From positions 12,585 through 76,584 of the forward strand of contig CAUUMS010000002.1 in assembly GCA_963546395.1 (NCBI GenBank): a stretch of 64,000 nucleotides of DNA, read 5' to 3'. This document shows, piece after piece, positions 54,800 to 63,514 of this stretch (the stretch's first letter is position 1; every line of letters begins with the position of its first letter). Both the position numbers and the translations under genes were made by a program. Source of the DNA: an uncultured Bacteroidia bacterium (GTDB lineage: Bacteria > Bacteroidota > Bacteroidia > Bacteroidales > CAJPTX01). The notes beneath the pieces were generated by a model. That model did no database searches. It was not told where the DNA came from and saw nothing but the letters and a program-made list of their open reading frames with translations.

Positions 54800-56647
54800 A
54801 TGGAGCGTGCGATGGCAAAGAAGCAGGCGAGCCTGGTGGGAGGCTTGGTGGCGCAGATGGCGGAGAGAGTCATATCGATCGACGACATCGTGTACCTCTT
54901 CGATCAGATTGACAATCAGATTTTGGAGCTGCACCGCTGCTCGTCGGAGGATTTCCTGGGGCTCAATGCCCGATTTAAGGGTTTCTACAAGGATGCGAAA
55001 GGCATTTCAGCCTGCGCCGGCGATCTATTCTTGCTATTTGCCGAGGGGGCTAATCGTCGTCTGATTGCCGACCTCACGGATTTTCACGCGGGGATAGGTC
55101 AGAGCCAGGCGCATCTGGCCGAGCTGCTAGAGTCCAGCCTTTCCACCATGGCACAGATGCGGGCGAGGCTTTCGGCACTATACCTCCCGCTGCGTAACAT
55201 GGCGCAAGCTGTGGGGACACTCAGCCTGCTGCTGACTAATCTCACCCTGGGGCATAAGCCCTTCTTACGCATGGCGCAGCACACGACGGAGAGCTTCAAC
55301 GCACTGCGGGGCGAGGTAGATCACTTTGCTGAGCGTATCAACGGGCTAGGACGCACGGTGCGCCACTACGGAGGCCAGCTGGAGCAGGCCCAGCAGCAGG
55401 TGCAACAGGTGCGCGGAAAGGCCCGGAGGAGCCTCGATGCGGTTCTAAACTCAGTGCATTACGGGCTGCTCCTGTTCGCCGAAAAGCATGCGGAGACTAA
55501 CGCCCGGGTACCGGACATTTCGCAGAAGACGGAAAGCACCTCCAAGAGCATTGCTGGCATCATCACGAACCTCCAGTACCAGGATATCATCCGTCAGAAG
55601 ATGGAGCATATCCAAGCGGCCCACCAGGAGCTGATGGGGCGCCTGCGCACGGAGCGCGAGCATGCTGAAGAGGGCAGCGCAGGGTGGATAGACATGCTCA
55701 TTCAGATTCGGGACATATCGGCGTTGCAATCGGCACAGCTGGTGGCGACGAATCGCGAGTACCAGCATGCCATCGAGACACTGTCGCAGAACTTTCAGAG
55801 CATTGCGCACGACATGGAGACGATAGCGGAGCTCAGTCGTGACACGCTGCGTATGGAGGGTGAGGGCAGTGGCACCACGGCCATTACCGGCTTGCTGGAG
55901 CGTCTCAGGGGGTCTCAGGGAGAGCTGAAGACGCTGACGCAGGTAGTGCCAGAGTTCCATGAATTGCAGGCGGAACTTGTGACTGAAGGGCAGACATTGT
56001 GCGCTGAGATCGAGGTGTGCATGGGCGACTTTCGGCGTATGATAGGCCAGATTGAGCCACTGCTGACGATACCTGAACGTGCGGCTCCCAATGCGAGCTT
56101 CACCATGATAACGCAGCAGATGGGTGCCGTGGTAGATGATCTCGTGGCCAATGCGGATAAGGTGACTACCAATGTGGCGGGCCTGGGAAAGGGTTGCGCT
56201 GCGCTGATGATGTGCGAGAGCGACCTGAAGGAGTCCCTACAGCTATGGAAGAGCTTTGAGGAAGGGGTCGATCGCATGCATGGCATCGGGACGGGTCTGG
56301 CGCAGACGGCTGGGAGGAGCGCAGAGCTGCTTGCGCAGATAGAGGCCATGAGCAAGAAGGTGTCGCATGACACTCGGATTGCGATGTCGGAGATCCGCTA
56401 TTACGATCTGTTCGAGGGTGTGATTGGGGAGATTATTGATGCGCTCAATGCCATCAGCGCACGGATTCGTGAGGAGGTGCGTGGCGAGGGAGCCGCAGGC
56501 AACCTGGAGAAGGTGCGTAGGCACTACACGATGGCGAGCGAGCATAAGATCCATGACTCGTTTCAGGGTGAAGGCGATGTGGATCTATTCGGCGACGAGG
56601 TGATAGACGAACCGGAGGAGGACGACGATGGGCTAGAGCTCTTCTAG
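54800..56647 (+). CDS. 615-aa soluble all-helical coiled-coil protein; non-canonical receptor/scaffold candidate with a CheZ-like YQDIIRQ signature
   Basis: No TM segment or signal peptide. It has NLQYQDIIRQKMEHIQ (D262/Q266), a degenerate second copy IRYYDLFEG, a Q-rich stretch EQAQQQVQQ and the acidic tail EPEEDDDGLELF. It is the first gene of the che-like operon. Confidence 0.7.
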   Translation: MERAMAKKQASLVGGLVAQMAERVISIDDIVYLFDQIDNQILELHRCSSEDFLGLNARFKGFYKDAKGISACAGDLFLLFAEGANRRLIADLTDFHAGIGQSQAHLAELLESSLSTMAQMRARLSALYLPLRNMAQAVGTLSLLLTNLTLGHKPFLRMAQHTTESFNALRGEVDHFAERINGLGRTVRHYGGQLEQAQQQVQQVRGKARRSLDAVLNSVHYGLLLFAEKHAETNARVPDISQKTESTSKSIAGIITNLQYQDIIRQKMEHIQAAHQELMGRLRTEREHAEEGSAGWIDMLIQIRDISALQSAQLVATNREYQHAIETLSQNFQSIAHDMETIAELSRDTLRMEGEGSGTTAITGLLERLRGSQGELKTLTQVVPEFHELQAELVTEGQTLCAEIEVCMGDFRRMIGQIEPLLTIPERAAPNASFTMITQQMGAVVDDLVANADKVTTNVAGLGKGCAALMMCESDLKESLQLWKSFEEGVDRMHGIGTGLAQTAGRSAELLAQIEAMSKKVSHDTRIAMSEIRYYDLFEGVIGEIIDALNAISARIREEVRGEGAAGNLEKVRRHYTMASEHKIHDSFQGEGDVDLFGDEVIDEPEEDDDGLELF

Positions 56648-56677
56648 TCCATGGCTGATAGGTAACCAATATAGGGA

Positions 56678-57019
56678 TTGGCAATGAAGACAGTAAAGCT
56701 GAAGGCGAGCGGCGGAAAAGCCAAGGGAGACGGCATCCTACAGGTGCAGGGCAGCCTGACGCTCGATTGTGTGGAGGAACTCCTGAAATTCTTCCGTGAA
56801 GGGGTGGCGAAGTATCAGAACATCCGGGTGGAGGCCGCAGGCGTGACGGGGATCGATCTCGGCTTTTTGCAGCTCCTGCATGCCCTAGACGAGTGCCAGC
56901 ACGCCAGGGGAAAGACATTGGACGTGTCGCTTGCGTTGGAGCCTGAGATGGCCCAACTGCTACGCCATGCGGGGTTTGCGCATTGGACAGGCCAGTTACA
57001 TGACGGGAATAACAGCTAA
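56678..57019 (+). CDS. STAS-domain protein (anti-sigma-antagonist fold)
   Basis: LQVQGSLTLDCVEEL...VEAAGVTGIDLGFLQLL pattern, 113 aa. Confidence 0.75.
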   Translation: MAMKTVKLKASGGKAKGDGILQVQGSLTLDCVEELLKFFREGVAKYQNIRVEAAGVTGIDLGFLQLLHALDECQHARGKTLDVSLALEPEMAQLLRHAGFAHWTGQLHDGNNS

Positions 57020-57024
57020 GTAGT

Positions 57025-61936: not shown

Positions 61937-62409
61937 TGGTGGCCATGGCGACACGAGAGACGCACTTCCTCTACCCTGCTGCGCTCTTTGCGAGCCCAAC
62001 ACCCGTCACGGTATCCACCATACTGGGCTCATGCGTGGCCGTATGCCTATTCGATAAAGAGCGAGGCATCGGGGGTATTAATCACTACATGCTCCCATTC
62101 TGGAACGGGCAGGGGCTAGCTAGCCCCAAGTACGGGAACATCGCCATCGAGAAGCTCCTCGAGAAGATGCTCTCGCTCGGTTGCCGCAAGGAGAACCTCG
62201 TAGCCAAGGTCTTCGGTGGGGGCGAGGTCATCGAGACGCACTCCCAGTTCCATATCGGGGCGCGCAACATTGAGCTGGCCACCACCACGCTCCGTGAGCT
62301 TGGCATCCCCCTGGTGGCGCGCAGCGTGGGGGGCCCCAACGGGCGTAAGCTCGAGTTCGACACCGAAACAGGAGCCGTGAGGCAGCGGCTGATCCAGAAA
62401 ACTATTTAG
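61936..62409 (+). CDS. cheD: chemoreceptor glutamine deamidase CheD
   Basis: TILGSCVAVCLFD and INHYMLP motifs. The ATG overlaps the preceding stop (TGATG). Confidence 0.88.
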   Translation: MVAMATRETHFLYPAALFASPTPVTVSTILGSCVAVCLFDKERGIGGINHYMLPFWNGQGLASPKYGNIAIEKLLEKMLSLGCRKENLVAKVFGGGEVIETHSQFHIGARNIELATTTLRELGIPLVARSVGGPNGRKLEFDTETGAVRQRLIQKTI

Positions 62410-62431
62410 CAAGCGAGAGCGATCCTAGGTC

Positions 62432-63514
62432 ATGCGTAAGTTCAGGGTACTCATTGTGGACGATTCGGCGCTGGTGCGCCAGAGCCTTAGCGACATCATA
62501 GCCTCCGATCCCCAGCTCGAGGTGATGGGGACGGCTGCCGACCCCTTCTTTGCCGCTAAGAAGATCGCCCAGGAGGTGCCCGATGTCATCACCCTCGACG
62601 TGGAGATGCCGAGGATGGACGGCCTCACATTCCTGCGCAAGATCATGAGCCAGCATCCTATGCCCGTGGTCATCATCTCCAGCCTGACGGAGCGAGGTAC
62701 GCAGACAGGTATGCGCGCCCTAGAGCTAGGGGCTGTGGAGATCATCACCAAGCCGAACATGGATGCCCGGCGGTTCATTGAGGAGTCGCGCATTAAGATC
62801 TGCGATACCATCAAGGCTGCGGCGCACGCCCGGATCCGTCGGTACACCGGGGCTAGCGAGGCGCACCAGATGCCCCACCAAGTACCCCCGAAGTATACGG
62901 CCGATGCCATCTTGCCCGCAGCCGAGGGGCGCCTCAGCATGATTAAGACCACCGAGGTTGTTATTGCCGTGGGTGCCTCCACGGGGGGTACCGAGGCCCT
63001 CACCAAGTTCCTAAAGGCGATGCCCGTCGATTGCCCCGGCATTGCCATCGTGCAGCACATGCCCGAGAAATTCACCTCATCCTTTGCCAAGCGTCTGAAC
63101 GAGCTTTGCAGCATCAACGTCAAGGAGGCGGAGAACGGCGATGCCATCCTGCGTGGCCATGCGCTCATTGCCCCGGGCAACTACCACATGCTGCTGAAGC
63201 GTTCTGGGGCCAAGTACTACGTTGAGGTCAAAGAGGGGCCGCTCGTGAATCGTCACCGTCCGTCGGTCGACGTGCTATTCCGCAGCACGGCTCGTTACGC
63301 TGGGGCGAATGCCCTGGGAGTCATCATGACAGGCATGGGTGACGACGGGGCCCGGGGCCTACTGGAGATGAAACAGGCTGGGGCCAAAACCATTGCGCAG
63401 AGCGAGGAGTCGTGCGTAGTCTTCGGCATGCCCAAGGAGGCCATCAAGCTGGGGGCCGCCGATCAAATTCTACCTCTCGAGCAGATAGCTCCCGCCCTTC
63501 TCAAGCTAGCTTAG
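62432..63514 (+). CDS. cheB: response-regulator protein-glutamate methylesterase CheB
   Basis: REC domain ([19 protein letters not shown]) plus esterase motifs GASTGG, QHMP and GMGDDG. Confidence 0.93.

Follow-up and report, generated by a model that had tools for sequence, protein, structure and literature searches.

Among the chemosensory pathways described so far, those most comparable to the system treated here belong to the F8 class and to the ancestral form of the F7 class. The F8 locus of S. oneidensis encodes CheA, CheY, CheW, CheR, CheD and CheB together with two methyl-accepting chemotaxis proteins (MCPs) and a STAS protein (PMC9855816), receptors of the 34-heptad (34H) type are paired with the F8 class (PMC11253619, PMC9321776), and the F8 receptor of P. 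syringae carries a C-terminal pentapeptide, its CheR having the corresponding pentapeptide-binding insertion (PMC11253619). In the stage-1 F7 cluster the order is STAS-cheY-cheA-cheW-cheW-MCP-cheR-cheD-cheB-MCP-STAS-serine phosphatase, and the function of the ancestral F7 system is described as unclear and linked to stress (PMC7184735). Focusing on the resemblance to these systems, we analysed a nine-gene che operon in a stretch of 64,000 nucleotides (hereafter the window) on contig CAUUMS010000002.1 of an uncultured Bacteroidia bacterium. Its genes, numbered 1 to 9, encode a large helical protein, a STAS protein, CheY, CheA, CheW, CheR, a kinase-like protein, CheD and CheB. The backbone STAS-CheY-CheA-CheW-(MCP)-CheR-(CheD)-CheB is of a known kind, F8-like or ancestral-F7, as judged by its parts list and by the type of receptor found in its relatives, whereas the gene 1 family, the gene 7 pseudokinase and the setting in a non-flagellated host with a type IX secretion system (T9SS) are new. 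There is good support for the negative results on gene 1 and gene 7 and, at the level of gene order and receptor type in relatives, for the class assignment.

A STAS-led backbone and its relatives

The whole F8 parts list (CheA, CheW, CheY, CheR, CheB, CheD and a stand-alone STAS protein) is held in one cluster here, as it is in cluster II of P. syringae pv. tomato and in the che2 locus of S. oneidensis, and the Bacteroidales relatives of the operon share with F8 the in-cluster receptors of the minor 34H class that end in a pentapeptide. The operon differs from F8 in that the host is a Bacteroidota organism with a T9SS and no flagella, in that two extra conserved genes are present, namely a 5' gene for a protein with a D-x3-Q motif and a gene for a His-less pseudokinase between cheR and cheD, and in that neither this genome nor its clade has the MCP in the cluster. 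With the ancestral F7 systems of stage 1/2 (V. cholerae cluster III, P. aeruginosa Che2 and S. oneidensis Che1) it shares the order STAS-cheY-cheA-cheW-MCP-cheR-cheD-cheB; those clusters end in serine phosphatase or partner-switch genes, comparable to the PP2C module downstream of the operon here, and their output is non-motor and linked to stress (PMC7184735, PMC9855816). However, F7 clusters contain two CheW genes, no protein of 600 residues and no embedded pseudokinase, and F7 receptors are 36H Aer2-like PAS-heme proteins, whereas the receptors of the relatives are 34H and transmembrane. Membership of F7, with which the gene order would agree, was rejected on this difference in receptor type.

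The order STAS-Y-A-W-MCP-R-B is also found in Chondrinema litorale (Cytophagales) and on Methylosinus and Sphingomonas plasmids, which encode the best annotated matches to CheA of the window. The MCP of C. litorale is 34H and ends in EYEQF, and CheA of the window shares 49% identity with its counterpart on the Chondrinema plasmid and 37-40% with the alphaproteobacterial CheAs of STAS-led clusters. No large helical protein is encoded upstream in the clusters of Chondrinema, Methylosinus and Sphingomonas, and no kinase-like gene is embedded in them; the Chondrinema cluster also lacks CheD, which accompanies gene 1 and gene 7 in every cluster that contains both. An earlier note on this stretch, made from the sequence alone, had taken the embedded STAS protein, together with the second kinase, as a hint of a non-motor output. 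Since a STAS gene is a standard 5' part of F8 and ancestral F7 clusters (PMC9855816, PMC7184735) and is likewise found in the Chondrinema, Methylosinus and Sphingomonas clusters, it is not special here. The analogy drawn in the same note with M. xanthus Che3 and P. aeruginosa Wsp, of the alternative cellular function (ACF) class, is apt in that these too are Che-type systems with a non-motility output, but it is a weak one: Che3 and Wsp have receptors of other classes and end in output-domain regulators (the NtrC-like CrdA and the GGDEF protein WspR), whereas a single-domain CheY is the only such regulator here.

The loci compared, designated by L numbers, include the best 80 loci from at least 209 species-level genomes with relatives of gene 1, and all of these 80 come from Bacteroidales, Bacteroidia or unclassified Bacteroidota. 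Carriers of gene 1 include Perlabentimonas gracilis, Tenuifilaceae, Williamwhitmania and the oral Candidatus Bacteroides periocalifornicus. Synteny is extensive, with all nine genes in identical order in about 60 of the 80 loci, and across these approximately 60 Bacteroidales species identity is 72-91% for CheY and 50-80% for the remaining Che proteins. Within the window, the open reading frame (ORF) calls and the Pfam and NCBIfam matches agree with the nine same-strand genes and the order given in the earlier note, the spacing between genes is -1 to 63 bp, and the TGATG overlaps recorded there at 57388-57392 and 61934-61938 are present. The overlap of one nucleotide between the CheY and CheA genes is retained in 46 of 59 loci. 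Because the order is shared by some 60 species-level genomes and this overlap is kept, the operon is not a chance assembly; as judged from sequence conservation, it is real, functional and vertically inherited across Bacteroidales.

The catalytic equipment of the core proteins is preserved. CheY has the complete set D9, D10, D53, T83 and K105, the phospho-acceptor H48 of CheA is conserved, the equivalent of R62 is conserved in CheW, and CheB has D56 and the S183/H209/D305 triad intact. CheR aligns without gaps with E. coli CheR over residues 182-197 and thus has the pentapeptide-binding loop length; the equivalents of R187 and R197 are kept, and the three Gly residues are not. In the STAS protein the motif reads I-D-L-G-F, with Leu after Asp as the consensus at 90% or more over 45 orthologues and in all of the rows inspected. 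SpoIIAA has D-S-S-G at this place, the Ser after the Asp being the one that is phosphorylated. The STAS fold is recognised here, but in this consensus the residue after the conserved Asp is not a phosphorylatable Ser or Thr.

The positions of CheY that carry the FliM signature are occupied by other residues: W58 is replaced by Leu in 64 of 64 sequences, K91 by Gln in 62 of 64 and K119 by Ala in 61 of 64. W58, K91 and K119 (E. coli numbering) are reported to be exclusive to FliM-binding CheYs (PMC9321776), and since all three are missing from this CheY a flagellar output is unlikely, in line with the suggestion of a non-motor output in the earlier note. That note had further observed that the window holds no flagellar or pilus genes and that the host is a Bacteroidota organism of the T9SS type. 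Both observations were borne out, the former by the other sizeable ORFs of the window, which are housekeeping or core genes with no flagellar or pilus family among them, and the latter by SprA (SprA_N, 4e-173). The output is very likely non-flagellar.

Two accessory proteins of the Bacteroidales operons

Gene 1 encodes a protein without a Pfam or NCBIfam family, for which only weak coiled-coil noise was returned. Its own family comprises 315 representative clusters at E ≤ 1e-30, nearly all of about 600 residues, and every member with a source name is called hypothetical. The AlphaFold2 model is all helix (predicted local distance difference test score, pLDDT, 77) apart from the last 36 residues, which are disordered (pLDDT below 50), and Foldseek gave only generic long-helix matches, all with template-modelling scores below 0.3. 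Across 108 representatives, down to 20% identity, the residues F52, D262, I263, Q266, Y534, Y576 and F615 are invariant. D262 and Q266 form the D-x3-Q motif, which is located on the helix spanning residues 163-286 of the model, approximately 25 residues before the turn, and at the preceding position 261, of the 108 representatives, 64 have His and 39 have Gln. The C-terminal tail has the consensus [DN]-[LVI]-E-[LF]-F-COOH, with F615 invariant and E613 conserved at 90% or more. With the pentapeptides x-[FY]-E-x-[FY] of the MCPs in the clusters the tail has Glu in third and Phe in fifth place in common, position 2 being aliphatic, and it is also loosely like the tail of CheZ.

That the first gene is not an ordinary MCP had been maintained in the earlier note, and Pfam, hhalign and a custom MCP profile all agree on this point. 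No MCP signalling domain was found in gene 1 by Pfam at E ≤ 0.1, hhalign gave probabilities below 1% for CheZ, for Tar and for a Bacteroidales MCP, gene 1 was not among the matches of the custom profile at E ≤ 10, and weak MCPsignal matches were seen in only two of 75 members of the family. The methylation consensus [ASTG]2-x2-[EQ]2-x2-[ASTG]2 is found in 0 of 81 gene 1 orthologues, compared with one to four occurrences in the adjoining MCPs. On these results, together with the coexistence of gene 1 with real MCPs, a divergent MCP was rejected.

The likeness of gene 1 to CheZ, the phosphatase of phosphorylated CheY (CheY-P), is one of arrangement. In both proteins a D-x3-Q motif lies on a long helix after an aromatic residue and Gln ([FY]-Q-D), and in both a disordered acidic linker ends in a short hydrophobic peptide terminated by Phe. 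When a profile of the motif region was used, D262 was aligned with D143 of CheZ, which makes up the catalytic pair D143/Q147 of that protein, and the real score was reached by none of 3000 shuffles; the local match covers CheZ residues 113-167. Weak matches to Pfam CheZ (PF04344) are found in three of 75 family members, the best with a value of 0.0018, and the window protein has none. In contrast to CheZ, gene 1 is three times larger, its motif precedes the hairpin turn instead of following it, and the best hidden Markov model register requires an insertion of four residues after the Asp. A CheZ homologue was rejected, since hhalign gave probabilities of 0.8% against CheZ and 0.15% against a CheZ-family profile, the latter a shallow one containing only enterobacterial sequences of at least 79% identity, and Foldseek gave nothing; the likeness is an analogy, and no homology is claimed. 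A HisKA_3-like dimerization and histidine phosphotransfer domain was likewise rejected, in spite of a majority consensus H-D-x3-Q-K that recalls the HisKA_3 box H-D-x3-Q, as the score against NarX was 0.6 bits and was matched or beaten by 204 of 967 shuffles, and Gln stands in place of His in 39 of 108 representatives. No other recognisable CheY-P phosphatase was found in the cluster.

Gene 7 had been described in the earlier note as a second kinase. Its H-box, however, has Asn in place of His, so canonical autophosphorylation is not expected: the phospho-acceptor His of PhoR (VSHELRTP) aligns with the Asn of ITNEIINP, an Asn with a conservation of at least 90% in 53 orthologues. Beside the lost His, the E-x-x-N with the Asn of the HisKA phosphatase position is kept, and the alignment with PhoR shows intact N, G1, F and G2 boxes. 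The protein is soluble, with an N-terminal coiled coil and a conserved tail FFDxEE[TS]F that here reads FFDDEEIF. By these features gene 7 is a predicted pseudokinase without autophosphorylation at the canonical site, and annotations mislead in this respect, as it is not a kinase in the usual sense; the homologues listed are all from Bacteroidales, are generically named sensor histidine kinases and have no precomputed HisKA match. Phosphatase-only or His-less kinase-like proteins are exemplified by R. sphaeroides CheA3 and Caulobacter DivL, and gene 7 likewise keeps the HisKA phosphatase motif E-x-x-[T/N]. In most loci gene 7 lies within 12 nucleotides of cheD, and it overlaps cheD here. In the CheC-CheD systems of Firmicutes and Thermotoga, CheD is coupled to a protein that dephosphorylates or binds a phospho-receiver; the candidate for such a partner here would be gene 7, although it has no sequence relation to CheC, CheX or FliY. 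An RsbW-type serine kinase acting on the STAS protein is not favoured as the identity of gene 7, because the HATPase_c_2 score of 26.6 bits is below the cutoff of 27.4 and the STAS protein lacks a phospho-Ser.

Receptors, mechanism and competing explanations

The absence of an MCP from the window, as reported in the earlier note, was reproduced by Pfam on gene 1, by tblastn of the window with two Bacteroidales MCP queries and by the custom MCP profile, which found no MCP among the 634 ORFs read in six frames from the window and the next 10 kb downstream (best E 0.28, compared with positive controls of 1e-26 to 1e-126). The conclusion drawn there that the missing MCP marks an undescribed system did not hold, since the orthologous clusters of relatives contain canonical 34H receptors. 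L069 and L080 have one between cheW and cheR, with a transmembrane segment, a HAMP domain and MCPsignal at E of about 1e-33, MCPs adjoin gene 1 in L024, L033, L036, L051, L057 and L071, and a C-terminally cut MCP lies downstream of cheW in L061. The 34H assignment was made by aligning three receptors, those of L069, L080 and Chondrinema, with E. coli Tar (36H), in comparison with which each arm has one deletion of seven residues. The 34H MCPs of the relatives are transmembrane proteins with four-helix-bundle or PDC sensor domains, and six of the eight complete MCPs of Bacteroidales loci end in an aromatic pentapeptide (EFEKF, EYEHF, NFEKY, AFEKY and others). We infer that the receptor of this genome is encoded elsewhere on the chromosome.

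The explanation that we consider probable is an F8-like pathway whose 34H MCPs are encoded elsewhere, with two lineage-specific modulators and a non-flagellar output. As expected from known families, a 34H MCP would control CheA via CheW, and phosphate would be transferred from H48 of CheA to D53 of CheY and D56 of CheB, while CheR, CheB and CheD would adapt the receptor. Gene 1 and gene 7 would be Bacteroidales-specific accessories added together with CheD. The tail of gene 1 may dock to CheR or CheB as a mimic of the pentapeptide, or to CheY in the manner of the CheZ tail, and its D-x3-Q helix may act on a phosphorylated receiver, whereas gene 7 may be a phosphatase or a phospho-receiver-binding regulator that is coupled to CheD in a CheC-CheD-like way. 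The output may be of the partner-switch or stress type, or may be control of the T9SS or gliding, as is pointed to by the GAF sensor, the PP2C module and the STAS protein. A bolder version, which we regard as doubtful when taken as a whole, is that the operon constitutes the tactic control of non-flagellated Bacteroidales: CheY-P would act on the T9SS and gliding or on a STAS/PP2C switch, its lifetime would be set by a phosphatase module of gene 1 and gene 7 that is coupled to CheD and docked by acidic Phe-ended tails, and in the host-associated clade of the window the MCPs would possibly have been lost, with input through gene 1 or through methylatable HAMP-GAF-coil sensors.

Several points weigh against the F8-like pathway as outlined. 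The roles given to gene 1, gene 7 and the output are read from sequence features, and the class assignment was made from the gene order and the receptor type of relatives rather than from phylogenetic placement. No MCP is found in the about 74 kb that extend from 54.8 kb upstream of the operon to 10 kb past it, none was found by tblastn in the flanks of the closest clade (L001-L007, L010, L012 and L013), and the only paper on a member of that clade lists CheA, CheB, CheR and CheW as well as CheY but no MCP (PMC6275135); with the flanks and this paper in agreement, an MCP-less state in this clade is possible. Profile-profile comparison supports neither CheZ nor HisKA_3 homology of gene 1. Homologues of gene 1 are found in rumen Bacteroidales without an adjoining che cluster, and gene 1 appears to be broken up in the cultured Tenuifilum thalassicum, for which the genome is complete (L091:4469-5871, CP041345.1). 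A figure legend lists a histidine-kinase gene among the Che-class gene orders, for Campylobacterota (PMC9239204), so on the wording of that legend an embedded kinase may not be unique to this lineage.

It is also conceivable, though in our estimate unlikely, that HAMP-GAF-coil-PAS sensors serve as the methyl-accepting inputs instead of MCPs and that the operon feeds a STAS/PP2C partner switch. A gene for such a sensor directly follows cheB in more than 30 loci, including those of Tenuifilum and Perlabentimonas, and it occurs in several copies in this species, one copy being a fusion with a PP2C phosphatase. The classical methylation consensus of MCPs is Glu-Glu-X-X-Ala-Ser/Thr (EExxA[ST]), with which the EE-x-x-A-T of the post-GAF coil in L022, L063, L075, L078 and L083 agrees, although few full-length copies could be checked, as most loci are cut short. 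On the contig of the window, 2.5 kb after cheB and past the window end, two CheR proteins, a CheB without a receiver and a PP2C phosphatase flank proteins of this kind, with coils that read EEMQAT and EEMQVT; this second module (Table 1) may serve the adaptation, by CheR and CheB, of sensors other than MCPs. In addition, a STAS gene and a serine phosphatase gene close the stage-1 F7 clusters (PMC7184735), and a genetic link joins S. oneidensis Che1 to the CrsR/CrsA partner switch (PMC9855816). However, the sensors lack the receptor hairpin that binds CheW and CheA and gave no score with the custom MCP profile, the HAMP-GAF-PAS copy of Tenuifilum has no enzymatic domain and no PP2C, and the STAS protein has no phosphorylatable Ser on which a PP2C could act. 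The second CheR/CheB set alone could account for methylation of the GAF proteins.

A pathway that dispenses with MCPs, in which gene 1 replaces the receptor, recruits CheR, CheB and CheD by its tail, is itself modified and controls CheA via CheW, appears improbable. It would agree with the absence of an MCP from the window, from the 10 kb beyond it and from the flanks of the closest clade, with the strong conservation of CheR, CheB and CheD, and with the 5' position of gene 1, which is held by an MCP in the F8 locus of S. oneidensis (PMC9855816). The tail, carried on an acidic disordered linker, resembles the pentapeptides of the cluster MCPs, and the C-terminal half of gene 1 is weakly similar to MCP arms (A1 against 2ch7, E = 4e-5; Tar, 15 bits). 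On the other hand, gene 1 has no MCPsignal domain, no hairpin-tip motif and, in the model, no long two-arm hairpin, the methylation consensus is missing from all of the orthologues inspected, and position 2 of the tail is aliphatic rather than aromatic. De novo designed coiled coils outscore MCPs against the gene 1 profile, and the weak similarity to MCPs is thus compositional. Above all, gene 1 stands beside canonical MCPs in the same cluster of many genomes, and it is therefore an addition to the receptor and not a replacement for it.

That the operon is a decaying relic of a flagellated ancestor or of a horizontal gain and no longer signals, as the lack of flagellar and pilus genes and of an MCP in about 74 kb, the lost His of gene 7 and the apparently fragmented gene 1 of Tenuifilum might suggest, is very hard to reconcile with the intact catalytic residues, the identities kept by CheY and the other Che proteins across about 60 species, the conserved overlapping start and stop codons and the His-to-Asn change of gene 7, which, being fixed in 53 of 53 orthologues of an otherwise conserved protein, indicates a new function and not decay.

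The F8-like pathway proposed here bears on a group of wide occurrence, as Bacteroidales are major organisms of the gut, the oral cavity and the rumen that lack flagella, and gradient-biased movement or behaviour in them is essentially unexplained. The model glider Flavobacterium johnsoniae is not known to have Che genes. A complete Che operon under strong constraint offers a concrete entry point, its carriers including the cultured Perlabentimonas gracilis and Tenuifilum thalassicum and a periodontitis-associated oral lineage. There is no agreed output for the F7/F8-type backbone in any organism, and in a lineage free of flagella the usual confounder does not arise. The families of gene 1 and gene 7 could represent new control of CheY-P or of the adaptation enzymes, and interest would be high if the accessories proved to be a new module for the control of CheY-P or if the pathway proved to steer T9SS-based behaviour. 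As the earlier note had supposed, no experimental work on the Che systems of this lineage was found in the literature consulted, where the only mention met with is at the level of annotation (PMC6275135): CheA, CheB, CheR and CheW as well as CheY of Candidatus B. periocalifornicus were called 'flagellar assembly proteins' and motility was inferred from them. The locus of this organism (L005, LIIK01000012.1) contains the same STAS-led cluster with gene 1 and the pseudokinase, and because this is the same non-flagellar cluster the inference of motility is not justified.

Neighbouring genes and minor observations

The GC content is uniform, and the flanks of the operon are core genes. The positions of the operon genes, of the motifs in gene 1 and gene 7 and of the adjoining regulatory genes are collected in Table 1. 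For gene 7 a longer reading from a GTG start at 60863 is probably not used, as gene callers begin at 60983.

Table 1. Positions of the che operon, of its motifs and of neighbouring genes. Coordinates are those of the window; for the second module, window coordinate = L083 coordinate + 52431.
Feature	Position	Strand	Description
che operon	54800-63514	+	nine genes, all on this strand; ORF calls plus Pfam/NCBIfam
Gene 1	54800-56647	+	615 amino acids; Bacteroidales-specific all-helical protein
D262-I-I-R-Q266 motif of gene 1	55583-55597	+	within NLQY[H/Q]DIIRQK
C-terminal tail GLELF of gene 1	56630-56644	+	follows disordered acidic linker
Gene 2, STAS protein	56678/56684-57019	+	111-113 amino acids; STAS_2, 6.4e-11
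Gene 3, CheY	57025-57390	+	single receiver; Response_reg, 6e-29
Gene 4, CheA	57390-59495	+	Hpt, H-kinase_dim, HATPase_c and CheW domains
Gene 5, CheW	59508-60041	+	CheW, 8.6e-35
Gene 6, CheR	60105-60974	+	CheR_N plus CheR, 3e-59
Gene 7, soluble pseudokinase	60983-61936	+	317 amino acids; HATPase_c, 3.8e-27; HisKA sub-threshold
Degenerate H-box of gene 7, SHFISNITNEIINPF	61178-61222	+	Asn for His
Gene 8, CheD	61936-62409	+	CheD, 1e-27 (Pfam) and 3e-39 (NCBIfam)
Gene 9, CheB	62432-63514	+	CheB_methylest, 1e-70, plus Response_reg
Crp/FNR-family regulator	54020-54685	-	221 amino acids; HTH_Crp_2, 1.4e-13; divergent from the operon
Second module (L083:13124-21083)	about 65555-73514		in order: CheR, 280 amino acids; transmembrane/GAF protein, 630; divergent CheR, 281; CheB without receiver, 188; GAF protein, 259; GAF-PAS-PAS-SpoIIE/PP2C phosphatase, 873; DUF6272

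Homologues of the Crp/FNR-family regulator are located upstream of gene 1 in nine other loci (L005, L007, L009, L010, L012, L013, L016, L041 and L053), and a Crp-type gene is upstream of the operon in Tenuifilum too. An ORF of 304 residues that starts with GTG, covers 54020-54934 (-) and overlaps gene 1 is an over-extension. Since callers start the Crp gene at 54685, the divergent intergenic region of 114 bp should hold the operon promoter.

The junction of cheW and cheR is an insertion hotspot among the operon loci. In L009 (8537-9805), L016, L017, L028 and L065 a protein of about 420 residues with a signal peptide and a terminal Phe is encoded between the two genes; it resembles an outer-membrane porin, has no Pfam match and occurs in metagenome-assembled genomes (MAGs) labelled Tenuifilaceae or Rikenellaceae. 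Between cheR and the pseudokinase gene, L030 (16201-17757) contains a bona fide hybrid histidine kinase and L078 (7131-7496) an additional receiver protein.

The gene 1 homologues that do not adjoin a che cluster were found in L049, L050, L052, L055-L060, L064, L066, L067, L070-L072, L074 and L076. These are mostly MAGs of rumen or gut Bacteroidales; identity is about 26%, and the motif and a DVEFF tail are kept. In L059, L066 and L071 the homologue lies directly 3' of a family-2 glycosyltransferase gene, and in L056, L066, L072 and L074 a CheW-like gene is found 2-8 kb from it. The Tenuifilum homologue consists of two ORFs of 330 and 133 residues and lacks approximately the first 130 residues, which suggests a frameshift or truncation; the NLQYHDIIRQK motif and a DNDVEFF tail can still be read.

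Elsewhere in the window, a protein of 786 residues (42072-44432, -) has the same architecture family as the post-cheB gene of the relatives, with dCache_1, HAMP and GAF domains, a Glu-rich coil (DEELHQNLEALRATQEEASRR) and a PAS-like C-terminus, and has no enzymatic output domain; its gene is divergent from that of an extracytoplasmic function sigma factor (44779-45279, +). A protein of 3133 residues (25493-34894, +) combines a Peptidase_S8 subtilase domain with GEVED, Laminin_G_3, InlB B-repeat-like and CarboxypepD_reg domains and is probably a giant secreted or cell-surface protease.

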